A DNA stretch of 64,000 nucleotides from a virus. Taxonomy: Duplodnaviria; Caudoviricetes. The position numbers and the translations under genes are program-made. The notes beneath the pieces were generated by a model. That model had not been told where the DNA came from, made no database searches, and was given only the letters and a program-made list of their open reading frames with translations. Of the stretch, positions 4,519 through 64,000 are shown piece by piece. How positions within the stretch are numbered: the stretch's first letter is position 1; every line of letters starts with the position of its first letter. The DNA lies in IMG/VR virus record IMGVR_UViG_3300022824_000016, positions 14,588 to 78,587 of that record. One strand, 5' to 3'.

Positions 4519-5355
4519 TCATTCGCAGAGATTGTAGACCGACATGCAGGAACGAACCGGGAACAGTGGAATCTGATCCTCATCGACACTTTCTATGTAG
4601 CGAAAAACATCTGCGCAAGTTGGAATGGGAACCGTACGGCCGTCTTTGGTGATAACGGATTTTGAACAGAAGCGCGATGGAATCTTGTCGGACCGAAACC
4701 ATGTTCGATAGTTTTCTGGATCGTTCGCAGCCTCGTTGGCATGGTTCTCCAAGTCAATCAAACGTGTTTTCAGCTCGGGAAAGAAGCTGATTGCACGTTT
4801 CAATTCTCCCAAACCGGTCATGATGCAAGGCCAACAGCCAACTCTCGTTGCTCCCATAAGATAAAGTGGATTTGGGCGGATATTGTACTTTTCCATCATA
4901 GCGAAACATTGTTCTGCAGACCAGTGCAGCAAAGGCCGCTTGATCCAGTAGCCACCTGCATCATTGAGCCATTCCGACTCGCTCAACTTAGATCTGGAAT
5001 AGGATTCATCGGCGCGAATGCCCTGATAACTGGTCACCTCGTCATCCAGAGATTTAAAATAACGATGCAGCGGAAAAACTTTCAATTCCTGAGTGCAAAA
5101 ACGCGAATGCACACCGGGAACCATTTTTCGGTCAACGACTAATTGTACAAAGCCATCGGAATACTTCTCGCTCTTAAGTGTGACAAGAGCGCCATCCAAA
5201 ACCGTCTGATTGATCTCTTCAACGTAGGCATAGGTAAGTGGATGTTCCCAACCCGTATCACAAAACACAGCCGTAAATTCCGACAGATTTTCCTTTGCCC
5301 AAAGAATCAGAGCCGTCGAATCTTTACCTCCGCTAAAGCAGACAATGTTTTTCAT
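4519..5355 (-). CDS. Phosphoadenosine phosphosulfate (PAPS) reductase family protein
   Basis: PP-loop FSGGKDS, DTGWE, GIRADES and RVGCWPC motifs. Confidence 0.85.
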   Translation of the reverse strand: MKNIVCFSGGKDSTALILWAKENLSEFTAVFCDTGWEHPLTYAYVEEINQTVLDGALVTLKSEKYSDGFVQLVVDRKMVPGVHSRFCTQELKVFPLHRYFKSLDDEVTSYQGIRADESYSRSKLSESEWLNDAGGYWIKRPLLHWSAEQCFAMMEKYNIRPNPLYLMGATRVGCWPCIMTGLGELKRAISFFPELKTRLIDLENHANEAANDPENYRTWFRSDKIPSRFCSKSVITKDGRTVPIPTCADVFRYIESVDEDQIPLFPVRSCMSVYNLCE

Positions 5356-5360
5356 TCAAA

Positions 5361-6218
5361 TTATTCCTTTAGCAGTCTCTGCCGAATTGGTACCAGTTTT
5401 TCCTGCATCGAACTTGCCATAGGGAAAAGATCATCCAGATCGTCATCCTCGCCAAAGACGGCATTTGTTTCCTGCTCTTCTTTTTCCCTGGTGCCAGCCG
5501 GACCAAAGACTGCTTTGCCAATAAATGTTGGTCCCTTCGGCGATGGCAGGAAGCCAAGCGCAGTATCAATGGCGTTTCTGTCCTTATCACCACCAGGCAA
5601 CTGACCGTAAGTAATGCGTGCTTTGGTGATCAGCGGATGAGAAGAGAGGGCAATCACTTTGACCATGCTTGCGGAAGCGGCTTGCATCGCAAACAGAATC
5701 GATCCGGTCAACTGCCGAATATCCAGTTTGGCAGCAATCGCCACAGCCTCCCAGGGAATTCTTTGCCGATCTCCCTCGGGAAGCGAGTCGTACTTTTTGA
5801 GGAATGCCGCAATCACTTCATCCTGCGCCGAAAAACGCATTGCATTAAGAACGCCTTTCAAACCACCCTCAGCATTTTTGAAAAGCGGTGTGATCTGAGG
5901 AGCTTCCGCAACTTTTTCAGGCTTGATCTTCAGACGCTTCAATGCTTCCGCTACCCGATTCTCTTTCTTCAGCGGTCTCGGAACCTGTTTAACGTCCGAG
6001 GAATTCTTTTTCCCTGATTCCGATCCATTCTTCAATCGGTTCGTCGCTTGCACCCTGTTCTTCGCGGATGAGGTCTTCTTCGGTTGGAACACGAGTGACA
6101 ATCGCTTCCCGTCTTTTTGCTGGTTCAGGCCACTGTTTGGCGAATTGTCTTTTTTGCGTGTCATCGATACCTGCCAGTGCTTCTGCAATCTGTTCAAATG
6201 CTGCCACGAGTCGTTCAT
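5361..6218 (-). CDS. Hypothetical protein, possible terminase small subunit; true start probably near 5990
   Basis: Position upstream of terL; helical, basic N-part; the 5' end overlaps another credible ORF. Confidence 0.4.
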   Translation of the reverse strand: MNDSWQHLNRLQKHWQVSMTRKKDNSPNSGLNQQKDGKRLSLVFQPKKTSSAKNRVQATNRLKNGSESGKKNSSDVKQVPRPLKKENRVAEALKRLKIKPEKVAEAPQITPLFKNAEGGLKGVLNAMRFSAQDEVIAAFLKKYDSLPEGDRQRIPWEAVAIAAKLDIRQLTGSILFAMQAASASMVKVIALSSHPLITKARITYGQLPGGDKDRNAIDTALGFLPSPKGPTFIGKAVFGPAGTREKEEQETNAVFGEDDDLDDLFPMASSMQEKLVPIRQRLLKE

Positions 6219-22985: not shown

Positions 22986-25247
22986 ATGATTCAACACTTA
23001 ACCTACGATGACACCTATGTTTATGTGCATGCCGCTGATACGTCGCTGAAAACCACCAAAGCCTTTACGCATGGCACGATTGTTTTTGATATAACATCGC
23101 GCACGGTGGTTTTTGGAAATCTGGACGCCGTGGAGATTCCAAAAGGTCTCATTCTTGAAGCAGGCAAAACGCTCACCTTTCAACTGGTGGGGTCCAACGG
23201 CAAATTGCGCCCGCAGACTCGCTCCGGCGCATTGCTGGGGAATGAGAAACATCCGGAGCTGCTGCGTGTGTCTGGCATGGCAAAGACACCACGCCGATTT
23301 GCCGCTGAAGACGGTTGGGGAAATGCAATCTATAAATTCCGCGCCTACTTTACACATCCCGGAATTGACATGACCTCCGACGGACAGTTCAAAAAATTTG
23401 AAGATCTTCCTGAGTGGCTCAGAGGCTGTATTGAAAGACAAAAAGCGTTATGGAACCGGCTGGCGTGGCTTTGCCGCGATGCGCGGAGAAAATGCTCTCC
23501 GGTTTTGCCTGAGCAGATCGCAGAGTTTGTGGCGAATACAATCCTGCCAGAGATCGATGCTTTCAATCTAACGCGGAGCAGAGACAAAACCAAAGAAAAA
23601 ATGCGGCACCCAGCTAAACTCAAAATAGCAGCACCCGGCGTGGACGGGTTGTGGAGTTTTGTTGGCGAACTGCGCGGGCGGATCGAAAAAAAACTCCCGG
23701 TACCAGATGGGCTGCTCGAAAAGGTGGTGGAATATGCCGAACAGTTTAAACCAGACTATACGCCACTGAATGAGTTTATGCGCGACTTTACAGAGATTGC
23801 TGAAAAAGAGGCTGTGGCATTGGGACTGAAACGCTTTGAGATCCGGCCTACTGTGAGCGCCTTCAAAGCAGTTCTGGACCGACGTAAAACTACCGCAGCT
23901 TCCTGGTCAGAAGGCTGGCCATTGATCAAATATCCTGACGGCCCCAAAGCTGGCAATTGGGGGATACATTATTACTTCAACAAGGCGGGTGTAGGTTCAG
24001 AACTTTTTGAAAACGGCCAAAATATACCGGGCATATGTGCAGGTCCGGCTTTTCAGCCTGCGCAGGGGGGCAGAGGAAAAGACACCATCTCTTTCTTCCA
24101 GCCTTTCGGCAAAATATCTGTTGTTGGCACAGTGACAAAACGAGCCCTACGTCCAGTAGTGATTTCGATTCCTGCAGAGAAAGGAGAGCGATGGGATTTT
24201 CATTTTTCGATCATGGAACACCGCGCTTTGCCGCTTAACTCTCACATCAAGGAATGGAAACTGATCTATCAGGATGGCAAACTTTGGCTGTGTCTGGTAG
24301 TTGAATTGCAGCGTCCAATTCCCAAAAAGGACTCACTTGCGGCGGGTTTGGAAATTGGCTGGCGGAGAACGGAAGAAGGTATCCGTTTTGCCACGCTTTA
24401 CGAACCGACAACGAAAAGCATCTGTGAAGCAACAATCAACTTTCAGCGATCTCCCAAAGATCACAAAGATCGTGTCCCGTTTCGCATTGACTTGGGTCCC
24501 ACACGATGGGAGAAACGTCATATCACTGAATTGCTTCCAGATTGGAAACCGAAAGATGCAATTCCCAATGTGATTGAAATACGAATGGTTTTAGCCGCAC
24601 GCTGTGATTATCTGAAAGATACAGCCAAAATTCGGCTGCGCAAGCATCTGGGCGAAAATACGCCGCCATGGCTGGAGAAAGCCGGAAGCAACGGTTTGCA
24701 CAGGCTGGCGCAGGAATTTATGGAAGACACTACCGTTCAAACCATTGTGAACGAATGGGAGGCAAATAATCGGCGAATTGCAAAATTGTCTGCTTTTTAT
24801 TTTGCTCAAACAACCGAGCGTTTGGAATACGCTCAACTGCAGGTAGCACACGATATTTGCAAGCATCTGCAAGCGAAAGGCATGGGACGGTTGATTTTGG
24901 AAGAAAATTTTCTGTCCAAAATTGCGCAACGGCACGACAATGAAGATCCCGAAAGTCTGAAGCGGTCGCAAAAGTATCGGCAGTTTGCAGCTCCAGGTAA
25001 ATTTGTTTCTGCAGTAAAGATGATCGCAATGAAGTATGGAATCGCAATAGAGAGTCGCGAGAACATTAACCTCACACGTATATGTCATTACTGCGATCAT
25101 CTGAATCCGTCCACCGAAGCAGAAACACTTATCTGTGAAGGGTGCGGACGGGAGATCAAGCAGGACCACAACACGGCCATTAATCTCGTGCGCTTTGAAG
25201 ATCTTGAACTGGCGGAAAAAGCACTGCACGCCGGAAGCAAAAAATAG
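22986..25247 (+). CDS. cas12m: Type V CRISPR effector, Cas12m (V-M/V-U1)-like, with an N-terminal extension
   Basis: HRALP; RuvC-I GLEIGWRRTEEG (E456); RuvC-II RLILEE (E639); AAPG; CxxC...CxxC zinc ribbon (700-720); RuvC-III QDHNTAINL (D727); abuts cas4. Confidence 0.8.
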   Translation: MIQHLTYDDTYVYVHAADTSLKTTKAFTHGTIVFDITSRTVVFGNLDAVEIPKGLILEAGKTLTFQLVGSNGKLRPQTRSGALLGNEKHPELLRVSGMAKTPRRFAAEDGWGNAIYKFRAYFTHPGIDMTSDGQFKKFEDLPEWLRGCIERQKALWNRLAWLCRDARRKCSPVLPEQIAEFVANTILPEIDAFNLTRSRDKTKEKMRHPAKLKIAAPGVDGLWSFVGELRGRIEKKLPVPDGLLEKVVEYAEQFKPDYTPLNEFMRDFTEIAEKEAVALGLKRFEIRPTVSAFKAVLDRRKTTAASWSEGWPLIKYPDGPKAGNWGIHYYFNKAGVGSELFENGQNIPGICAGPAFQPAQGGRGKDTISFFQPFGKISVVGTVTKRALRPVVISIPAEKGERWDFHFSIMEHRALPLNSHIKEWKLIYQDGKLWLCLVVELQRPIPKKDSLAAGLEIGWRRTEEGIRFATLYEPTTKSICEATINFQRSPKDHKDRVPFRIDLGPTRWEKRHITELLPDWKPKDAIPNVIEIRMVLAARCDYLKDTAKIRLRKHLGENTPPWLEKAGSNGLHRLAQEFMEDTTVQTIVNEWEANNRRIAKLSAFYFAQTTERLEYAQLQVAHDICKHLQAKGMGRLILEENFLSKIAQRHDNEDPESLKRSQKYRQFAAPGKFVSAVKMIAMKYGIAIESRENINLTRICHYCDHLNPSTEAETLICEGCGREIKQDHNTAINLVRFEDLELAEKALHAGSKK

Positions 25248-25883
25248 ATGGAGGACGATGATTTCATTTTGATCTCTGCGCTACAGCACTATAGCTATTG
25301 CCAGCGTCAGTGTGCATTGATTCACGCAGAACAGAGTTTTGCGGATAACGTGCACACGGCGCGAGGCAACGCGGATCATAGATTCGTCGATCTGGAAGGT
25401 TATGAATCACATGCAGATGTGCATATCGAACGAGCACTTCCTCTGGTTTGTGAGAAGATCGGTTTGCGTGGAAAAGCCGATATTGTCGAATTTTTCTCTG
25501 ACGGTTCAGCCTATCCCGTCGAGTACAAACATGGTGTGCGTCGCCCGCAGAATCATGACGACATACAACTGGTTGCCCAAGCTCTCTGCCTTGAAGAGAT
25601 GACTGGCCATGTTGTACCGTTTGGTGCAATTTATCACATCGGTAGCCGTCGAAGACGCGAAGTAAAGATCACAGATGAATTACGCCAACAGGTGGTTGAC
25701 ATAACTCAGACAATTCGGGAAATGCTGCAATCAGAAAAGATGCCACCTGCCCCCAACGATGCTCGTTGTACTGAATGCTCACTGATTGAAATCTGTCAAC
25801 CGCAAATGCTTGCAGAACAAGTGAAACGGCAGACTTTGCGCAAAAATTTGTTCAGCGTGGAGGATGATTGCAGATCCTGTTAA
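25248..25883 (+). CDS. cas4: CRISPR-associated exonuclease Cas4 (I-C-like)
   Basis: ISALQHYSYCQRQ, GKADIVE, PVEYKHG, QLVAQALCLEEM and C-terminal CxxCxxxxxC. Confidence 0.95.
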   Translation: MEDDDFILISALQHYSYCQRQCALIHAEQSFADNVHTARGNADHRFVDLEGYESHADVHIERALPLVCEKIGLRGKADIVEFFSDGSAYPVEYKHGVRRPQNHDDIQLVAQALCLEEMTGHVVPFGAIYHIGSRRRREVKITDELRQQVVDITQTIREMLQSEKMPPAPNDARCTECSLIEICQPQMLAEQVKRQTLRKNLFSVEDDCRSC

Positions 25884-26899
25884 ATACTCTTTATCTAACT
25901 CTGCCCGGCTATCTGCATTTAGATAACGATACCTTGCGTTTTGATGTGGAGCGAATTACCCGTTTGCGAGTGCCACTACATCACATTGGAGGCGTTGTCT
26001 GCTTTGGCGACGTGCTGGTTTCGCCTGCGGTAATGGGACGGTTAGCCGGAGAAGGAAAGTCGTTGGTATTTCTTGATCGGAATGGACGCTTTAAGGCTCG
26101 TCTTGAAGGACCAGTCAACGGCAATATTTTGCTACGTAAAGCACAGTTTGCGCATGCTGATTCGCCAATGTTTGTCTTGGCACATGCCAAAGCCTGCATA
26201 GCGGGTAAACTGAAAAACAGCCGTTGCGTGCTCTTGCGTAGTGCACGCGATGCTGGCGAAGAAAGCGATGCCGAACGACTGCGTGAAGTTACGAAATCCA
26301 TTGCTGTCAATTTGCGCTCTCTGGAGTCGGCACCAACGCTCGATGTTGTACGCGGTCTAGAGGGTGAGTCGGCTCGCTGTTATTTTGCGGTGTTTTCTTG
26401 TTTAATTCACAGGGAGCAACGTGCAGCGTTTACGTTGGATGGCCGGAGTCGCCGTCCACCACGGGATCGGATGAACGCATTGCTTTCCTTTCTCTACAGC
26501 ATGGTGATGAACGATTGCCGCAGTGCGCTCGAATCTGTTGGACTTGATCCGCAACTTGGTTATCTTCATACTGTGCGTCCTGGACGTGCATCATTGGCTC
26601 TTGATCTGATGGAAGAGTTTCGTTCCGTTATCGCAGATCGGCTAGCGGTTACTTTGGTCAATCGTAAACAAATCCAAGCAAATGATTTTGAAGAACGACC
26701 AGGTGGCATGGTGCAGTTACGGGATGCTGCACGCAAGACGCTGGTTCTTGCTTTTCAGGAACGCAAGCGAGATCTTACTTCCCATCCATTGCTTGATCAA
26801 AAGTTAACCATAGGATTACTACCTCAGATTCAAGCGCGACTATTGGCCCGTGTTATTCGTGGTGAAGTCGAGGACTATCTTCCTTATTTGGAGGGTTAG
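25868..26899 (+). CDS. cas1: CRISPR-associated integrase Cas1 (I-C-like)
   Basis: [43 protein letters not shown] and [10 protein letters not shown] motifs. Confidence 0.97.
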
Positions 26900-26901
26900 C
26901 T

Positions 26902-27192
26902 GTGCTTATTTTGGTGTGTTATGACGTAGCGACGGATACCCCACAAGGTCGAAGACGCTTGCACCGAGTGGCTAAAACTTGTGAGGCTGTTGGCCAGCGA
27001 GTACAGCGGTCAGTTTTTGAATGCCATGTAAACCAAATAGAATATGAGAAATTGGAACGGAAGCTGCTGGATGAAATTGATCCTTTGGAAGATTGCTTGC
27101 GCTTTTATCGGTTGACCGAACCGTTCAACCAACATTTGAAGGAATACGGTAAATTCAAGGCATTCGATTTTGATGGACCATTGATTGTGTGA
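26902..27192 (+). CDS. cas2: CRISPR-associated Cas2 (I-C-like)
   Basis: LILVCYDV...[10 protein letters not shown]...[11 protein letters not shown]...D.LRFY. Confidence 0.97.
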
Positions 27193-27377
27193 ACCTGTTT
27201 CCACGAACCAGAAGTGACAGACAAAAGGCGGGAGGTTCGCGGAACGCGGAAGTTTCCTGTTTTCAAGGAGATAAGTATGACATACCAATTTTGTGATTAT
27301 GGAAAAGATGTGGAAAAGACGAGGTTCGCGATTTCCACAGGACAAACCATTGATGCTATTATGTTTTTAGTGCCGAA
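27193..27377 (+). promoter_or_regulatory. CRISPR leader
   Basis: Non-coding gap between cas2 and repeat 1; GAGGTTCGCG twice (27232, 27321), a pattern I associate with I-C leaders. Confidence 0.7.
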
Positions 27378-28131
27378 GGCACAATGAACATAAAGTGCAT
27401 CGCACAGATGCAACATGCCCTGATTCAGCACTTCAACGCCCACAACCTATCGGCACAATGAACATAAAGTGCATCGCACAGATGCAACAGAGAAAGCTAC
27501 AGTTCGATCAACGATGCTAGATCGGCACAATGAACATAAAGTGCATCGCACAGATGCAACTGTGAGGCTCGCTGGCTCACGGCCCTTCGTGATAGGCACA
27601 ATGAACATAAAGTGCATCGCACAGATGCAACTCAGCAGCGTGCGTCTGGAGCGGCAACAATACCGGGGCACAATGAACATAAAGTGCATCGCACAGATGC
27701 AACTTATCCGCTGCTGTGCCAACAATACTACCCGACTGGGCACAATGAACATAAAGTGCATCGCACAGATGCAACGTAATCTGTCTGCTCCTGAACAGCA
27801 CTATTTCGCGGCACAATGAACATAAAGTGCATCGCACAGATGCAACCAGAACTACTGGTGAGTTCACTGCCCATTGATCTTGGCACAATGAACATAAAGT
27901 GCATCGCACAGATGCAACCAGAACTACTGGTGAGTTCACTGCCCATTGATCTTGGCACAATGAACATAAAGTGCATCGCACAGATGCAACTGATAGCGTG
28001 CGCCGCCCTGCATCGCAGGTCCGCGGCACAATGAACATAAAGTGCATCGCACAGATGCAACTGAATACCATTCCAACGTTGTTGCGTGATCCAAGGCACA
28101 ATGAACATAAAGTGCATCGCACAGATGCAAC
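27378..28131 (+). CRISPR. Main CRISPR array: 11 identical 37-nt repeats, 10 spacers of 33-37 nt
   Basis: Repeat GGCACAATGAACATAAAGTGCATCGCACAGATGCAAC; TGCATC/GATGCA hairpin at the 3' end; spacers 7 and 8 identical. Confidence 0.99.
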
Positions 28132-30301: not shown

Positions 30302-30985
30302 ATGAACCAAACGCCACAACCAATCAGCCCGCGCCATCCGAATCCCCACAGGCTTAAAATCTCTGGTGGCTGGTTTGAGCCGGACGGACACGTCTATCGT
30401 GACGCTCAGGGAAATCGGGTTCTGAGCGTCACGCAGATCTTTCAGATGCTGGGTTTGGTGAATTATGACGATGTCAGTCCGGATGTTTTGGAACACAAGT
30501 CAGAGGTTGGCATTGCTGTACACAAAGCAGTTGAATTGCTGTTACAGGGTTTGCTGGATTGGGATACAGTCGATGAAGCAGCAATGGCTTACGTAGTAGG
30601 AGCGGAGATACAGTTTCGCAACATGGCTTTTGAATTGGCCGAATGTGAACAACAGGGCATTTTAGAAACTCACGGCATGAAGGTTGGCTACCAGTACGAC
30701 CAGCGTGGATGGATTCTGTATAACGGGCGCAAGAGGCCGGTAATTGTGGATTTAAAGACTGCCGTGCAGGAAAGTGATACATGGGCATTGCAGACGGCAG
30801 CGTATGCGCTGGCTGCGCCCGGATTGAAGGATGGAGAACATTATCTGCGGGTAGTTTTGCATTTGCAGAAAGACGGTCGGGTCAAGCCGCTCTATTATGA
30901 AGATCCGCAGGATGAACGCACTTTTTTGTATATGGCGTATTGTGCTCAGTGGAAACAAAATCACGGATATAAACTTGCCGCGTAA
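30302..30985 (+). CDS. PD-(D/E)XK exonuclease-like protein
   Basis: LSVTQI, G.AVH, VDLKT and LQTAAY motifs. Confidence 0.75.
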   Translation: MNQTPQPISPRHPNPHRLKISGGWFEPDGHVYRDAQGNRVLSVTQIFQMLGLVNYDDVSPDVLEHKSEVGIAVHKAVELLLQGLLDWDTVDEAAMAYVVGAEIQFRNMAFELAECEQQGILETHGMKVGYQYDQRGWILYNGRKRPVIVDLKTAVQESDTWALQTAAYALAAPGLKDGEHYLRVVLHLQKDGRVKPLYYEDPQDERTFLYMAYCAQWKQNHGYKLAA

Positions 30986-30996
30986 AGGAGAATGCC

Positions 30997-31476
30997 GTGA
31001 AAATTGTTTTTCTCGACTTCGATGGGCCAATTATTCCGGTTCAGTCGCATGTACATAATCGCAGTGTTAAAGAAAAAGCGTGGCCTCCTTGCGTAAAAGC
31101 GCTGAATCGAATTACGGATTCAACCGGAGCCAAAATTGTTGTAACCAGTTCATGGCGTGATACCTCCGCAAAAAATCTTTTTTATGGTCAGGCAATAAAA
31201 ATCGTGCAAACACTTTTGAAACAGTGGGGTGTCACTGGAGAAGTTTTGGGACAAATACCGTATTGCATAGAAATTCAAGGAAATTACGCAATTGAAGCGC
31301 CAAGGGGTCAGGAAATAGCCTCTTTTCTAAAAATATGCGATAACGTAGAATCATTTGTCATTCTGGATGATGATGACGACATGGAGGATTTAAGGGAATT
31401 TTTAATTCAGACACCGTTCGAAAAGGGGTTAACGGAGGCTGACGCTGATCGAGCGATCAGGATGTTATCGCAATAA
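30997..31476 (+). CDS. HAD-superfamily phosphatase (HAD_SAK_2-like)
   Basis: IVFLDFDG, IVVTSSWR, RGQEI and FVILDD motifs. Confidence 0.85.
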   Translation: MKIVFLDFDGPIIPVQSHVHNRSVKEKAWPPCVKALNRITDSTGAKIVVTSSWRDTSAKNLFYGQAIKIVQTLLKQWGVTGEVLGQIPYCIEIQGNYAIEAPRGQEIASFLKICDNVESFVILDDDDDMEDLREFLIQTPFEKGLTEADADRAIRMLSQ

Positions 31477-31513: not shown

Positions 31514-32206
31514 GTGGAGGATTTTGAATTTGAACCGGCTTCGGAATTAACAACTGATTTAGCGTTACGGGCTGAACCAACGTTGTTGTTGCCCAGCAAC
31601 TTTGACAGTCGCGTAGCAGCATTGCGCAAAGAAATCGACGTTATTCTGCGCCATGCAGAAACCTTCACTGAAATTACCAGTTTGGAGCAACGCGACCGCG
31701 GAATTGAAGCAGGACAGTTGCTTCAGGTAATGTCTAAAAACGTTGCTGAATTTTATAAACCCATCAAACAGGCTATTGACCAGTTAAAACAGCCCATTCT
31801 GGAAATGGAACACGTTGATGCGGACGCGTTGAAAACCGCCAAAGAGCGGTTGGCCATAGCAATTCAGGAGTTTGAAAACCGTCAGGCATTGATTGAAGCT
31901 GCCGCCATGGAGCAGGCACAGCTCGCAGCAGCTGCGGAAACTCCGGATGGAGAGTTGCCGTTGCCGGTGATTGTGCCCGCCGTCGTTCCGGCAAAGACGC
32001 GCGGCAAAGTCGAGACCGCAAAATGGCACGCAGAAGTCGTGGATTTGTTGAAGTTGGTGCAAGCAGTGGTTTCGGGCCAGGTACTAATTCAGGCCGTTCT
32101 GGCCAATCAAAAATATCTGGACAAGCGCGCCGATTCTGACCGGGAAGGAATGAACATTCCCGGCGTGGAAGCGCATGAAACGAAAAAAATTCATTTCAGA
32201 GTTTGA
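31514..32206 (+). CDS. Hypothetical phage protein
   Basis: 230-aa coiled-coil ORF ending NIPGVEA. Confidence 0.65.
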   Translation: MEDFEFEPASELTTDLALRAEPTLLLPSNFDSRVAALRKEIDVILRHAETFTEITSLEQRDRGIEAGQLLQVMSKNVAEFYKPIKQAIDQLKQPILEMEHVDADALKTAKERLAIAIQEFENRQALIEAAAMEQAQLAAAAETPDGELPLPVIVPAVVPAKTRGKVETAKWHAEVVDLLKLVQAVVSGQVLIQAVLANQKYLDKRADSDREGMNIPGVEAHETKKIHFRV

Positions 32207-32544
32207 GCAAGAGTAGAGGGGGGTTCATGAAAACTGCTGTTTGTTTTTTCCTGAGTATCGTTTGTTTGACCGCGCCTGTTTGGGCACAAACATCATCCCA
32301 AAATCCGCAGGACTTGCCGATTGCCGTTTCGGCACCGCAATCGTTGCAGACTCAGATTGATGGTGCCTGGAAAGATGTGCGGATCGCGCAATTGCAACTG
32401 ACCCTGATTGTGCAACAGGCTTTAGCGGGAATGGAAAAGGGTGCGTATTACGACTTTACCCAGCAGAAGTTTTTCCGTCCTGCGGAACCACCGAAAAGCA
32501 CTGTAAAAACGCCGAAAGGAGCAATTCCAGAGAAAAAGCAGTAA
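32203..32544 (+). CDS. Hypothetical secreted protein
   Basis: Signal-peptide-like N-terminus. Confidence 0.5.
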   Translation: MSKSRGGFMKTAVCFFLSIVCLTAPVWAQTSSQNPQDLPIAVSAPQSLQTQIDGAWKDVRIAQLQLTLIVQQALAGMEKGAYYDFTQQKFFRPAEPPKSTVKTPKGAIPEKKQ

Positions 32545-32680
32545 TTGAAACGGCAAGATTGATACATCATGCGGCCAGTCCAGATTCTGGACTGGCCGCA
32601 ACAGAAAATGGAACCTATAGAAAAAGCAGTCTTTTTTAATAGCTCTTGACACAAAAATGGATGCAAAGCAGGATGCAGAT

Positions 32681-32812
32681 GACGCATGTGCCTCGAACAT
32701 GCGTCTATTCGGTCGCGATGCGGAGTCGACCCCTCCAGTTGGTTGCGGCCAGCAAGTCGTGATGGGCTGGTTGGTCCTCGGTGCCGGCCCGTCGCGACGG
32801 GTTCACTCTTTT
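32681..32812 (+). ncRNA. Candidate structured ncRNA or leader
   Basis: Three hairpins (9 bp, multibranch, 15 bp) downstream of TTGACA-17-CAGGAT. Confidence 0.4.
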
Positions 32813-32864
32813 GGGACAAATTAGATTTCCACAACCTTTTTGATTTTTTGGGGAAAAATGTTGC

Positions 32865-32930
32865 GTTTCGGTTCAAAAAGGTCTACCTTAATTGCATCAG
32901 AACGAATAGAATGTTTCGGTTCAAAAAGGT
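32865..32930. repeat. 18-bp direct repeat GTTTCGGTTCAAAAAGGT x2
   Basis: Copies at 32865 and 32913; partial inverted copy near 32833. Confidence 0.8.
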
Positions 32931-32992
32931 TTATAAACGAGCAATTGGAATGGAATAAGTATTCTTGTGCATCCATAACCAAGGAGCAGAGG

Positions 32993-33271
32993 ATGAAATC
33001 CGTTGAAGCCGATCGTCCCTATGAACCGCTAATCAAATCGGAAAAAGCAGCCGAATTTTTGGGTTGTGCCCCCCTTACCGTGCGCCGGATGGCACGCGAT
33101 GGAAGGTTGCCTTCGATTCCCTTTCCGAGAGGAAATGGAAAATTTCAGCATCGTTTTCGCCTTTCAGAATTGCAGGCATACGTGGAGAGTCTGTCACAGT
33201 CATACAACAGGCCAACGTGTCAGGGAACAGACTTCGACGCGCAAAAGCGAAATGACAATCCGGGTGCCTGA
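32993..33271 (+). CDS. Excisionase-like (HTH_17) DNA-binding protein
   Basis: LIKSEKAAEFLGCAPLTVRRMARDGRLP; converges on the integrase. Confidence 0.75.
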   Translation: MKSVEADRPYEPLIKSEKAAEFLGCAPLTVRRMARDGRLPSIPFPRGNGKFQHRFRLSELQAYVESLSQSYNRPTCQGTDFDAQKRNDNPGA

Positions 33272-33328
33272 TTTTTGGTATGCAACGAGCGGCTGTCCAA
33301 CCGCACGATTTGTCGGACAGCCGCTTTT

Positions 33329-34618
33329 TCAGGCCACCAGGTGCACGTCATATTCGCTTTCATGACGACATTTGTCGATAAAGTCGGCCCAGTGCTGCAT
33401 CATTTTAGTGCGGGCAGCCAGATATTTTGCTTTGTTGTAGACGGCGGCAACCTCACCTTTGCCGATATGCGAAAGCTGCATCTCAACATGCGTTGGATCA
33501 AAGCCCTGCTCATTGAGATACGTAGACGCAATGTGCCTCCAGCCGTGTCCGGTCATGCGGCCTTTATAGCCCATCCGATCCAGTGCTTTGAGAATAGTAT
33601 TGTTGCTCATTATGCCCGTGCCACCGTTGTAATCAGGAAAAAGACGATCTGTATCGCCACTGACAGTTTGCAGACGTTTTAGTACGGCAAGAGCCTGTGA
33701 GGAGAGCGGCACAATATGTTCGCGCTTCATCTTCATGCGTTCTGCCGGGATAACCCAGAGATTCTGTTTCCAATCGATTTCTTCCCATCGGCCACCGATC
33801 AACTCCCCGGTACGAATAAAGGTCAGGCTGAGTAGTTCCATGGCCAGCCGGGTCAGAACGTTTCCGTTATAGTTGCGCATCTTTGCAAGCAGTTCCGGTA
33901 CATCACCGATGTCCAGATGGGCGAAGTTCTTTTGAACTACTCTGGACAGGATCTGGCCCGGCTCGATGCTGGCAGCTGGATTTGTGGCATTTTCATCAAG
34001 AAAGCCATTATTCAATCCCCAATCAAAGATCTGACGAATGATCTGCAGATTGCGGCGCGCAATATCGCGGGCACCGCGGGCATCCACAGCCTGAGAGAGA
34101 GCCACGATGTCCATGCGTTTGATCTCATCGGGACGTTTTTTGCCAATTTGAGCAATTACGTCGTTTTCCAGCCGGGCTTCAACATTGGCGGCGTATTTCC
34201 GGTTCTTATCGGCTTTCCACCAGGTAAACCATTTACGGACCAGATACTCGAAACAGTCCGTAGCGGTTTTCTCTTCCTCGGCGCACTCCGCTTTTTTCAC
34301 TTCTTTGGCTTCTTTACGCACAGCCATGGGATCGACGCCTGTGGCCAGAAGAGCCCGAGCTTTGGCATGGCACACACGTGCTTCCGCCAGGGAAACATCG
34401 GGATACTTGCCCAATGCCATTTGTTTTTCTTTTCCTTCAAAACGATAGCGCCAACGCCAGAGTTTTCCACCAGTTGGTGCAACTAACAGATAAAGTCCTC
34501 CTCTATCAGCGAGGTAGTATGGCTTTGATTCTGGCATGGATTTTTGGCATTTCAGATTGGTTAATTCGGCTGAAAGCTTCGATGAATTGCTTGATGTTTT
34601 TTCTTTCAAAGTTTGCAT
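33329..34618 (-). CDS. int: P4-family tyrosine integrase
   Basis: Arm domain (DRGGLYLLV...WRWRYRF.GKE...LG.YP.VSL.EAR); catalytic R (IRTGEL), HGWRH, LSH and VYN. Confidence 0.92.
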   Translation of the reverse strand: MQTLKEKTSSNSSKLSAELTNLKCQKSMPESKPYYLADRGGLYLLVAPTGGKLWRWRYRFEGKEKQMALGKYPDVSLAEARVCHAKARALLATGVDPMAVRKEAKEVKKAECAEEEKTATDCFEYLVRKWFTWWKADKNRKYAANVEARLENDVIAQIGKKRPDEIKRMDIVALSQAVDARGARDIARRNLQIIRQIFDWGLNNGFLDENATNPAASIEPGQILSRVVQKNFAHLDIGDVPELLAKMRNYNGNVLTRLAMELLSLTFIRTGELIGGRWEEIDWKQNLWVIPAERMKMKREHIVPLSSQALAVLKRLQTVSGDTDRLFPDYNGGTGIMSNNTILKALDRMGYKGRMTGHGWRHIASTYLNEQGFDPTHVEMQLSHIGKGEVAAVYNKAKYLAARTKMMQHWADFIDKCRHESEYDVHLVA

Positions 34619-49643: not shown

Positions 49644-50348
49644 TTATTCTTCCCTGCGATGTCGAAATGATTGCGTTAGATCAAAGCCCGCCTTCAAAAT
49701 CTTTTGCCGATTTGTGACCTCAACAGGCGGTTGTTGATCTGGAGCACTGTTCAGAGTATTGCCGACGAAATAGGCCAGATCCTGATACATCCGACTGGGC
49801 GGAATCAACGTTGGCATTCCAACTGTCTGCAAGATCGGGCATTGCCCAGCAATAGTGATACAGGTATTCGATGATTTCCATAAGCCGCAGGCTTCACGCA
49901 CAACAAAGACGGGTGCTTGAATCTGCCTCGATAGATCAACCAAAAAGGGCTGTTCGATTCCATAAGGAAACGAGTGCCTGGCCCAATACCTACGTTTCTT
50001 TTTTGTAATCTCTGCTGTTTCTTCTGGCGATTGCACTTTGAAATTGTTGACATTGGTAAAACGGGAACGGTACATTCCCATTCCCGGCTGAGTCATCCGA
50101 TATAGCTTTGCAGCCACTACCAAAAAAACAGTTTGCGTTTCCTGTTGATCGCGGCAAAACATGCTCGTCAAATCGCGCAGCGGAGAATCGCCCTCTATCT
50201 CAATTTGAAGGTTGGATTCGTTGATCTTATTTCCGTTATTTTTTTGTGGAACTAGACGCTTGCGAACGTAGACTATGCGCGGATCGCCGCCGCCAAACTG
50301 ATTGGCCACAAAGTCGCAGTAATCTTTGAACGGAGATTGAATAACCAC
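49644..50348 (-). CDS. Conserved phage hypothetical protein
   Basis: MVIQSPFKDYCD N-terminus; AGFDL..SFR C-terminus. Confidence 0.65.
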   Translation of the reverse strand: MVIQSPFKDYCDFVANQFGGGDPRIVYVRKRLVPQKNNGNKINESNLQIEIEGDSPLRDLTSMFCRDQQETQTVFLVVAAKLYRMTQPGMGMYRSRFTNVNNFKVQSPEETAEITKKKRRYWARHSFPYGIEQPFLVDLSRQIQAPVFVVREACGLWKSSNTCITIAGQCPILQTVGMPTLIPPSRMYQDLAYFVGNTLNSAPDQQPPVEVTNRQKILKAGFDLTQSFRHRREE

Positions 50349-50414
50349 GATGTTCCTCGATTGTTTTTTGCCGCCTTTGATAAGGTAAACAAAAATAACT
50401 GCCGAATGTCATAC

Positions 50415-50876
50415 ATTGCATCTCTGCGATGCACTCTATGTTCATTGTGCCTTTGAATCAGCCGGAGTGATGGCACTCAAGCATGTTGCATCTGTGCGAT
50501 GCACTTTTGGTTCAGTGTGCCTGCGCTAAACGCCGCGATGGCTGTCATCAAATGGTTGCATCTGCCCGATGCACTGTATGTTCTTTATGCCAAGAAACTG
50601 GGACAGAGAACATGTCTTGGAGGAAATGTTGCATCTGTCCGATGCACTGTAAGTTCATTGTGCCCGATGCCAATCGGTAAGCGTGCAGCCAGCAAGGGGT
50701 TGCATCTATGCGATGCACTTTTGTTCATTGTGCCTCGTTCCGTGATGTGATATGGCGGCACGCACTTCGTTGCATCTATGCGATGCACTTTATGTTCATT
50801 GTGCCGGGGCTACCAATGGCGAATGCGCTTAGTGACGTGGTTGCATCTATGTGATGCACTCTTGATTCAGTAGGCT
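50415..50876 (-). CRISPR. Satellite array 1: 7 degenerate repeats, 6 spacers (33-36 nt)
   Basis: Repeats at 50415, 50485, 50555, 50628, 50699, 50769 and 50840, all variants of the main repeat in reverse orientation. Confidence 0.95.
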
Positions 50877-50914: not shown

Positions 50915-51469
50915 TCAGGCAACAGAAGATTCGGCTGTATAGGTACCAGCGATGAGCGCTTTGGCGATTATACCGCTGGAATCGGGCCACGCAGCGCGGG
51001 AAGCCAGACCACTCCGATAGCTGGCACGCACAGGATTCTGTTTGATCCATGCATCGTAGGTTGCGTATTGTTGTAGCCGCATTTGAAAGAGCAAAACTTC
51101 CTCTTCCACGGCGTTTACGGCGGCAAGCGTTGCTGGGCCAAAATTTCTGTCAACTACAAGAGAAGCACCTGTTTTGACCAACGCTTTTTGCAGATTTCCG
51201 ATGCCAGTAGGCGTGCCCTGATTGACACAATCGTCTAAAATTTTGGTGGCTACATTTTGATTGGTGATTTGATTGTAAATCGAGTTCCAAAAATACTTCT
51301 GATAAAGCATTGTGGCTTCTTCGGCAGTGACGGGGAGCGAGATACCCAGTTGCACACATTCCGCCGTCGACCAACCGTAACGGGTAAAACCACCTGGATC
51401 GGCACGTAAGGTTCCCGCTTTACCTTCGTGTTGTAGAACAACTGGAATTGCCAAAGAAAAATCAGCCAC
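50915..51469 (-). CDS. GH108 lysozyme (endolysin) with a peptidoglycan-binding domain
   Basis: HEG...DPGGFTRYG catalytic motif; D..VNQG; FGPATLAA. Confidence 0.88.
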   Translation of the reverse strand: MADFSLAIPVVLQHEGKAGTLRADPGGFTRYGWSTAECVQLGISLPVTAEEATMLYQKYFWNSIYNQITNQNVATKILDDCVNQGTPTGIGNLQKALVKTGASLVVDRNFGPATLAAVNAVEEEVLLFQMRLQQYATYDAWIKQNPVRASYRSGLASRAAWPDSSGIIAKALIAGTYTAESSVA

Positions 51470-52622: not shown

Positions 52623-52919
52623 ATTGTATTTGTCTGATGCGCTCTTGGGTCAGCGTGCCAAACGACAGTTCCGTTATGCAATCCTGGAATCGACGTTGCA
52701 CCTGCTCGGTGCACTCCTGGTTCAATGGGTAAATCAAAAAGATATTAATCGCCCGAAATTTTCAGTTGCATCTATCCGATGCACTGTTGAATCGGTGTGC
52801 GTGGCTTATTGAAAACAAACAGGCATCATTCTACGTTGTTGCATCTGTGCGATGCACTTTATGTTCATTGTGCCATCCTAGTCTTAATGTTCAGCGGAGC
52901 GGAGGTCCGTTGCATCTGT
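52623..52919 (-). CRISPR. Satellite array 2: 4 full repeats (1 perfect, 3 degenerate) plus 1 truncated, 4 spacers
   Basis: Repeats at 52623, 52695, 52765, 52838 (perfect) and 52909 (11 nt). Confidence 0.9.
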
Positions 52920-53244
52920 TCCTGGGAGTGCTCCATGCTCAATTGTCAAACCCACTGCTGCCGCTGCGAGCGCAATATCTTTGAGTCTGGTGTTTTCTTC
53001 TTCCAAAGATTGCAGTTGGGCAATTAAAGTGTCAATCATTTTTTTCTGTATAGCTATAAGTTTTGTGCACCAGTAATTGCGCCATATCACCGGCACAGCC
53101 AATAGCATTGCAATAGTAAAATCGGCAATGCACCATCCTCTGTGATGCAAAAGATAATTGATGGTAAAAAAATGCCGAGCGTGAAAAAAAGGATGCAATA
53201 AATTGCATCGAACAGGCTACGGAAAAATACATTGAGTTTATTGT

Positions 53245-60340: not shown

Positions 60341-60460
60341 TGGCTGGGGGAGACGGGAGTTGAACCCGCTTGGCAGTCTCCATAGGACTGTGCATGTATA
60401 CGCTCACAGTAGCTGACTGAGCAGCAAGTCGCATGCGTTTCACGTTTTGCTACTCCCCCA
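60341..60460 (-). ncRNA. tRNA-like RNA with an 8-bp acceptor stem, G73-CCA and expanded anticodon arm
   Basis: TGGGGGAG/CTCCCCCA; class II D-arm; variable arm CAGTC/GACTG; T arm GCGGG TTCAACT CCCGT. Confidence 0.6.
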
Positions 60461-60497: not shown

Positions 60498-60570
60498 GGA
60501 TCAGGGTTGGAATCGAACCAACTACCCTCAGATTACAAATCTGATGCTCTACCAAATGAGCTACATGTAA
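60498..60570 (-). tRNA. tRNA-Thr(UGU)-like with a broken acceptor stem
   Basis: Intact D, anticodon (TCAGA TTTGTAA TCTGA) and T arms; acceptor strands do not pair. Confidence 0.55.
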
Positions 60571-63620: not shown

Positions 63621-63931
63621 ATTGCATCTACCCGATGCACTTTTGGTTCATTGTGCCGCAATAAAGAAGTAATTGCTGCCTGCTGTAAGAGTTGCATCTA
63701 TGCGATGCACTGTCCATTCATTATGTTGCAAAGTAAGAGCGGCGAACCAGCGCCATGTAGTTGTTGCATCTATGCGATGCACTTTATGTTCATTGTGCCT
63801 GGGATTTCCTAGCATCATCGTGTTGGGCCTTACAGCGTTGCATCTATGCGATGCACTGTATGTTCTGTGTACCGTTCAACGCTAATCTCACGCTCCTTGA
63901 CATCAAGGGTTGCATCTGTGCGATGCACTTT
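63621..63931 (-). CRISPR. Satellite array 3: 5 degenerate repeats, 4 spacers (33-37 nt)
   Basis: Repeats at 63621, 63691, 63763, 63837 and 63909 (last keeps only 23 nt of the repeat). Confidence 0.93.
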
Positions 63932-64000
63932 CAGTACAGAAAGAAAAGATATTTCATGTTGTCCTTCCTTTAAATCAAGCAGCCACATTTTTAACTTCAT

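Follow-up and report, generated by a model that had tools for sequence, protein, structure and literature searches.

The repeats dispersed through this phage genome end in a short hairpin that very probably serves as the crRNA handle for a Cas12m-like type V system encoded by the phage itself. The reading draws on the kinship of the effector, the constraint on the repeats, their covariation, the RNA strand, and the polarity along the arrays, and we infer that the effector binds and processes the hairpin without a tracrRNA and that the satellite arrays are at present expressed and used. Type V repeats are expected to conserve a hairpin at their 3′ end, and the case here is unusually clear: natural variation by itself reveals the putative handle used by a compact type V effector (~750 aa) that is so far uncharacterised.

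The type V locus and its satellite arrays

The window, that is, the whole 64-kb stretch of DNA analysed, is the right-hand part of a single virus record of 78,587 nt, and zero further repeat copies were found in the remaining 14.6 kb of the record. The virus looks like a temperate phage, with genes for an integrase, endolysin, SSB, primase-helicase, ERF recombinase, and methyltransferases, and a large ORF of the same phage had a weak match to the terminase large subunit. The effector gene (22986 to 25247, plus strand) encodes a Cas12m-like protein of 753 aa with the RuvC residues E456, E639, and D727 and, after these, a zinc ribbon at the C terminus. It is succeeded on the same strand by the adaptation module (25248 to 27192), consisting of cas4 (25248 to 25883), cas1 (25868 to 26899), and cas2 (26902 to 27192), and by a 185-nt leader (27193 to 27377) with a promoter-like site at 27334 to 27362, 16 nt ahead of the main array. 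The main CRISPR array (27378 to 28131, plus strand) is co-directional with the cas genes and contains 11 identical 37-nt repeats and 10 spacers of 33 to 37 nt, one of them duplicated. The identical spacers, at 27847 to 27881 and 27919 to 27953, are adjacent, and one repeat-spacer unit has therefore been duplicated.

Three satellite arrays lie on the minus strand, all co-directional with the flanking minus-strand genes, with 3 to 6 full-length spacers per array and repeats 66 to 100% identical to the main repeat. The array S1 (50415 to 50876, seven repeats) is flanked by two minus-strand genes, the endolysin gene and a phrog_4243 gene, and a minus-strand promoter-like site was found ahead of it at 50918 to 50889; all of its stems are intact, and the copy at 50699 carries a 1-nt deletion. 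The array S2 (52623 to 52874, four repeats) includes a copy at 52838 identical to the main repeat and a 3′-terminal copy (52623 to 52659) with a broken stem. The array S3 (63621 to 63945, five repeats) lies upstream of a minus-strand tRNA cluster, 55 nt from the contig end, and in its first copy (63909) the 5′ 14 nt have diverged and the 3′ 23 nt are perfect. No homologue of the main-array leader was detected upstream of any satellite. The last repeats of S1, S2, and S3 (50415, 52623, and 63621) all end in AAT, not AAC.

A 13-nt repeat stub (52909 to 52921, minus strand), located 71 nt upstream of S2 and in register with it, comprises the loop, the 3′ strand of the stem, and the AC, with 12 of 13 positions matching. 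A small minus-strand ORF (about 52887 to 53047, ~53 codons) has the stub in its 3′ end, where the last codons cross it, and stops within the first S2 spacer. A rearrangement seems to have truncated S2 at its upstream end and joined the array to this ORF. Downstream of S1, a possible eighth repeat at 50336 to 50372 (minus strand) is badly decayed, with 20 of 37 matches and the ending TTCAAT at a spacing of 79 nt; it extends into the start of the next gene downstream, and its score is close to chance. Rfam reported two tRNA-like elements on the minus strand, at 60345 to 60459 and 60505 to 60564 (42 and 51 bits), neither of which was called by ARAGORN, and one of which is 115 nt long.

Constraint, covariation, and strand of the repeat hairpin

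In the sense orientation, defined by the reading of the main array, the repeat is laid out as a stem (positions 19 to 24 with 30 to 35), a 5-nt loop, and a final AC, and the minimum free energy fold of the sense strand is exactly this 6-bp hairpin. The 16 full satellite copies were scored cell by cell against the main repeat. Changes were found in 5/192 stem cells, compared to 20/80 cells of the loop and 63/272 cells of the 5′ 17 nt (stem versus rest, Fisher P = 5e-11; column permutation P = 1e-4). The sequence-only reading had stated that the stem is kept in nearly all satellite copies and had proposed a comparison of stem and non-stem mutation densities, and the counts bear out the statement, with the lower density in the stem. 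When the terminal copy at 52623 was left out, 2/180 stem cells were changed, both of them forming the compensating pair of the 52695 copy. Perfect or compensated stems are thus present in 15 of the 16 full copies, and in the remaining one, 52623 to 52659, three stem positions are unpaired and folding gives no hairpin. All nine loop variants named earlier are present among the satellites, in which A17, G18, A29, and A36 are invariant. The 5′ part, described in that reading as drifting, is not uniformly free, with zero changes at G9 and one at A10.

Since the variable loop is flanked by conserved stem strands, conversion tracts or a recent origin do not explain the pattern, and since every periodic slot of each array was scored, neither does a choice of look-alike copies. 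The comparison supports the view that the satellite hairpin has been under purifying selection while other positions diverged by ~24%; the earlier reading took the degenerate arrays to be still under selection.

The copy that had been singled out for a compensatory double change is the third of the four repeats of S2 (52695 to 52731, minus strand), with the sense 3′ end GTGCACC-GAGCA-GGTGCAAC. Its stem-loop occupies 52697 to 52713 on the minus strand (sense positions 19 to 35), and the constrained block A17-C37 maps to 52695 to 52715. The pair 23-31, formed by the plus-strand bases 52709 and 52701, is C-G in this copy and U-A elsewhere, and the copy folds into the same 6-bp hairpin at -10 kcal/mol. 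The C23-G31 pairing is read directly from the sequence, but a double mutation in place is not required, because the closest relatives, the loci L015 and L016 (effector 82% identical), carry TGCACC/GGTGCA as their standard stem. The same stem was also found in L006 and L036, and the nearest repeat elsewhere, L016:6694, matches the 52695 repeat at 29/37 positions versus 25/37 for the main repeat. The arrays of the family are mosaics in which UC/GA and CU/AG stems alternate within single arrays, e.g., in L003 and L027, and single spacer units are common to otherwise different arrays. With the arrays mosaic and the allele present in relatives, the 52695 pair shows that pairing is required rather than that two mutations occurred in place, and the stem may have been inherited or recombined.

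Homologues of the effector, forming about 100 clusters of 30 to 95% identity, were found in IMG/VR viral contigs, in Acidobacteriaceae and Terracidiphilus metagenome-assembled genomes (MAGs), and in many JGI metagenome contigs; two of the MAG titles name peat sites (bog and SPRUCE). From about 30 related loci, 181 unique 37-mer repeats were extracted by periodicity and single-linkage similarity, and pairing statistics were obtained from an alignment of 150 unique repeats. RNAalifold over all repeats gave only 3 of the 6 pairs, and the named structure was therefore counted directly. Pairing was present in 97.4% of the helix cells and fell to 20 to 47% when the partner columns were slid by 1 to 3 positions. 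Cells changed on both sides numbered 77, compared to 19.7 ± 3.5 in shuffles, and 0/500 shuffles reached the observed value; the repeats are of common ancestry, and the cell counts therefore overstate the number of independent events.

Covariation was observed at four of the six helix pairs. Within the helix, mutual information peaked at 23-31 (UA 130, CG 48, 3 unpaired) and 24-30 (CG 132, UA 36, UG 10); the counts were AU 148, GU 28, and GC 3 at pair 22-32 and UA 169 and CG 6 at pair 19-35. Across the family, the palindromic TGCA/TGCA of the outer four base pairs hardly varies, G18·A36 occurs in 176/181 repeats, and C37 in 93%. The hairpin that had been proposed just 5′ of the spacer thus covaries across the 150 unique repeats as an RNA-level element would. 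In the satellites of four other phage records, 5.7% of stem, 26% of loop, and 22% of 5′-part cells differed from the array consensus.

Within the loop, positions 25 and 29 covary without standard pairing (G/A 139, U/C 14, A/C 6, and C/G 5), perhaps because they form a sheared closing pair or because loop types differ between lineages. Between columns 1 to 17 and the loop, no long-range covariation was detected in the family repeats. The best candidate for a second, 5′ stem (4 to 8 with 12 to 16) was rejected, only 46% of its cells being paired. No CRISPR-DR family of Rfam matched the repeat.

Three sequence tests agree in supporting the strand that runs from GGCAC to GCAAC as the RNA, the orientation given by the sequence-only reading. 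On this strand, G·U pairs outnumber A·C combinations by 43 to 9 (P = 2e-6), and the RNA strand therefore reads from GGCAC to GCAAC; on the opposite strand, the observed G·U wobbles would become C·A mismatches. Unpaired stem positions occur in 8/31 last repeats, 8/232 other repeats, and 0/31 first repeats (P = 1e-4), and the last repeats diverge in their 3′ part (0.86 versus 0.95 identity, P = 7e-5). In the first repeats, the 5′ 17 nt have an identity to the array consensus of 0.79 versus 0.90 in the middle repeats (P = 0.005), and the 3′ 20 nt are kept. This polarity of decay is the one expected if each spacer needs the hairpin of the preceding repeat. One observation counts against the handle reading: two arrays, L027:2931-4158 and L050:1950-2774, have their first four (effector-proximal) spacers in common and differ in the later ones, an unusual pattern if the leader is at that end. 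One of the common spacers is preceded in the two arrays by repeats differing at three variable positions, and the pattern suggests that units were shuffled or converted between repeats.

Relation of the effector and its repeats to Cas12m

In the effector, Pfam and NCBIfam recognised nothing beyond the TnpB/Cas12f zinc-ribbon region at the C terminus. When a profile built from 31 homologues was compared with the PDB, it matched a Cas12m chain (23vw, E = 4.8e-21) in three collinear stretches. With the AlphaFold model of the effector (pLDDT 81), the top four Foldseek matches were Cas12m2 and GoCas12m (E = 1.7e-19 to 1.5e-15, TM by target 0.53 to 0.58), and the next were Cas12f and TnpB at ~1e-11. 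The effector is nearest to Cas12m both by sequence profile and by fold, and on these two grounds we regard it as a distant, enlarged Cas12m relative. Cas-lambda and Cas-phi were rejected as the effector family, with no sequence match at E up to 1 and Foldseek values of ~1e-6 versus 1e-19 for Cas12m.

Type V-M effectors mature their own crRNA, bind DNA without cleaving it, and have a non-canonical RuvC site. The first RuvC position varies across the family described here (D 15, E 12, H 3, and R 1), and the triad of the window's effector is E-E-D. A variable first residue (D, E, or H) is shared with Cas12m, for which the published triads include D-E-D, H-D-D, and N-D-D (PMC11013384). In contrast to Cas12m, with about 600 aa, the effector described here has 753 aa and only ~15% identity by Foldseek, and it is ~150 residues longer, with an extra N-terminal beta-rich part. 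Residues 1 to 121 (22986 to 23350) were predicted as a confidently modelled beta-rich segment of ~120 residues. The type V-M subtype is known from plasmids and some prophages (PMC11656645).

The structure of Cas12m2 contains a non-canonical G(-23)·A(-2) pair, a 6-bp helix joining positions -22 to -17 with -8 to -3, and C(-1) (PMC10442227), and the repeats of the phage family have G18·A36, the 6-bp helix, and C37 in the same register. The 37-nt length is also that of the Cas12m repeat. The family consensus begins with GUAGCAAC and ends with AG, the helix, and AC; it is matched by the Ms and Tf Cas12m repeats in the 5′ GU(A/U)GCAA and in the 3′ AG, helix, and AC, and these two repeats end in CUGAGAC. 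In the window's own repeat, the 5′ end has drifted to GGCACAAUG.

Several features differ from Cas12m. The loop is 5 nt long, compared to 8 to 11 nt in Cas12m, some loci of the phage family carry a full cas4-cas1-cas2 module, and phage genomes hold numerous dispersed arrays whose repeats are heterogeneous. In Cas12m crRNAs, a larger part of the repeat is engaged, through a pseudoknot or triplex for which the 5-nt loop is too short and of which no supported counterpart was found in the phage repeats. As neither a pseudoknot nor a second stem is supported, the analogy to Cas12m holds only in part, and together with the loop length this led us to file the system as a Cas12m-related variant and not as a plain member of the subtype.

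Cas12m functions with no tracrRNA, and its crRNA of ~50 to 60 nt retains 30 to 33 nt of the repeat (PMC11013384; bioRxiv 10.64898/2026.03.26.714355). The hairpin had been assigned to the tracr-independent type V kind, and by analogy this would suit an effector whose nearest relatives are the tracrRNA-free Cas12m proteins. A search for an anti-repeat near the locus yielded no candidate that rose above background (duplex energies of -19 to -26 kcal/mol, background -23.5 ± 3.1), and the intergenic regions contained no reverse-complement repeat copy at 20/37 or better.

A similar arrangement exists in the Cas12a handle, a repeat hairpin placed directly 5′ of the guide and used with no tracrRNA, in which the stem must pair and the loop is tolerant. 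The position of the hairpin, the pairing stem, and the change-tolerant loop are alike in the phage repeats, whereas the effector family within type V is unrelated and the sequence is different. The Cas12a handle also forms a pseudoknot with upstream U residues.

Proposed function of the putative handle and alternative readings

Each repeat ends with G18·A36 closing the 6-bp helix (19 to 24 with 30 to 35), a G-NNN-A loop, and AC before the spacer. In the proposed mechanism, the main array would be transcribed from its own leader and the satellites together with the minus-strand operons that hold them. The effector would bind the hairpin and cut somewhere upstream in the repeat, and the following spacer would serve as the guide. 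That nothing but the hairpin ahead of a spacer matters would account for the drift of the 5′ 17 nt and of the loop centre, for the persistence of stem changes only where pairing is kept, and for the decay of the last repeat. The figure of about 20 nt proposed from the sequence for the handle describes the constrained block, A17-C37 (21 nt), and characterised Cas12m crRNAs keep 30 to 33 nt of the repeat. Taken as a map of the handle, positions 22 to 24 must pair with 30 to 32, the AG, UGCA/UGCA, and AC are fixed in sequence, and variation is free at the loop centre and over most of the 5′ 17 nt. Such a map translates directly into a minimal guide RNA and a set of mutants.

Related phage records, G001 to G006 (those behind the loci L001 to L006), contain many dispersed arrays of the same repeat family. 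One record of 58.7 kb holds 48 repeats in at least five places, other records hold 54, 34, and 23, and repeat sites in G002:C1 are at 5218-5809, 11516, 25064-25582, 30869-31390, and 31840-33415. Some of these arrays are single repeats and some are on the opposite strand. In this phage group, dispersed arrays with diverged repeats are the rule. Viral mini-arrays and single repeat units are likewise short, without adjacent cas genes, and scattered in the virus genome (PMC11656645). The satellites share this layout, but the viral mini-arrays have one or two spacers that target related viruses, repeats identical to those of the host, and borrowed host Cas proteins, whereas this phage encodes its effector, has 3 to 6 spacers per satellite, and carries diverged repeats.

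No description of an enlarged Cas12m-like branch with many dispersed heterogeneous arrays was found in the searchable literature. It is conceivable, and we raise it only tentatively, that Acidobacteria phages carry an undescribed branch of this kind that needs only a 21-nt handle RNA (AG, the 6-bp helix, the G-NNN-A loop, and AC), with leaderless arrays scattered through operons and kept for long as fixed guide sets. With so little of the repeat constrained, such phages could scatter and keep many leaderless arrays. The guides might then silence genes of the host or of rival phages at different infection stages, and the heterogeneous repeats would represent a natural deep mutational scan of the handle.

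A different fate of the satellites would leave the handle a true one and make the arrays decaying relics, with the stem reflecting past selection only, which we consider unlikely. The absence of a main-array-like leader and the eroded ends (the broken 52623 copy, the stub at 52909, and the truncated 63909 copy) would fit decay, and so would the outcome of the protospacer searches. No protospacer was found for the spacers in the phage itself and 65 related loci, in INPHARED phages, where the sole match was an ssb gene, or, for two 22-nt spacer seeds, in IMG/VR. The S1 spacers gave chance-level matches and the repeat itself only in 301 Acidobacteriaceae genomes, and those of S1 and S2 had no protospacer in five effector-carrying MAGs. 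Against decay stand the 15 of 16 full copies with perfect or compensated stems despite ~24% change elsewhere, the shared direction of arrays and flanking minus-strand genes, the promoter-like site ahead of S1, and the many dispersed arrays of the relatives, whose same pattern suggests retention.

It is less probable still that the satellites act as regulatory or decoy RNAs (CreR-, Cracr-, or Racr-like) and not as immune guides, retuning or titrating a Cas12m-like effector that belongs to the host or to a rival phage. Homologous effectors are present in Acidobacteriaceae MAGs, and there is a precedent in Cas12a, for which documented phage regulators resemble crRNAs and retain the handle hairpin in otherwise degenerate repeats (bioRxiv 10.1101/2024.10.29.618823). 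The phage, however, owns an effector, one satellite repeat is identical to the main repeat, and the arrays have 3 to 6 full-length spacers and not single pseudo-spacers. Spacer seeds of 10 to 12 nt had 6 matches in the 78.6-kb phage genome, with ~4 expected by chance, none of them preceded by TTN and none at the cas promoter, and in this the satellites are unlike CreR, CreA, and Cracr, in which a degenerate repeat is joined to a pseudo-spacer with a partial, PAM-adjacent match at a cas or toxin promoter.

A constraint at the level of DNA, with the TGCATC-N5-GATGCA palindrome being the site of a dimeric protein or a Cas1-Cas2 integrase motif, is very improbable. The outer four pairs are almost invariant and palindromic, and integrases of some systems read inverted motifs within repeats. 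As DNA mismatches, however, G·U and A·C should be symmetric, and the imbalance of 43 to 9 lies on one strand; the loss of stems specifically in last repeats is not predicted for a DNA site, the satellites are leaderless, and most loci are without cas1. Least probable of all is an antisense reading in which each repeat, a hairpin with CTTTATGTT after it, would act as a small intrinsic terminator and keep antisense transcripts from entering the operons, for although a terminator scan flagged nearly every antisense repeat (12 sites versus 3.3 expected, and 14 versus 1.5), the antisense tail of the family consensus is TNAAAC and not T-rich, the wobble pairs turn into C·A mismatches on that strand, and the stem has only 6 bp with 3 G-C pairs.

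Under the favoured reading of the hairpin as a crRNA handle, the uniformity of the arrays can be set beside the presence of cas1. The three cas1-adjacent arrays are the most uniform, with 1 variant in 11 copies in the main array of the window (27378 to 28131), 1/22 in L055:10334-11872, and 5/15 in L006:12423-13458. The ~25 arrays without cas1 in the fetched locus are all heterogeneous, and often no two of their repeats are alike. The most economical explanation is that, once an array stops gaining units, its repeats are no longer made uniform and drift, constrained at the handle only, and the association of repeat uniformity with cas1 bears on how CRISPR arrays evolve after adaptation stops. 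Repeat divergence may also limit recombination, as had been suggested, but the absence of cas1 is the simpler correlate. Rearrangements occur in both kinds of array, as a duplicated unit in the main array and as truncated spacers of 8 to 25 nt in the heterogeneous arrays.
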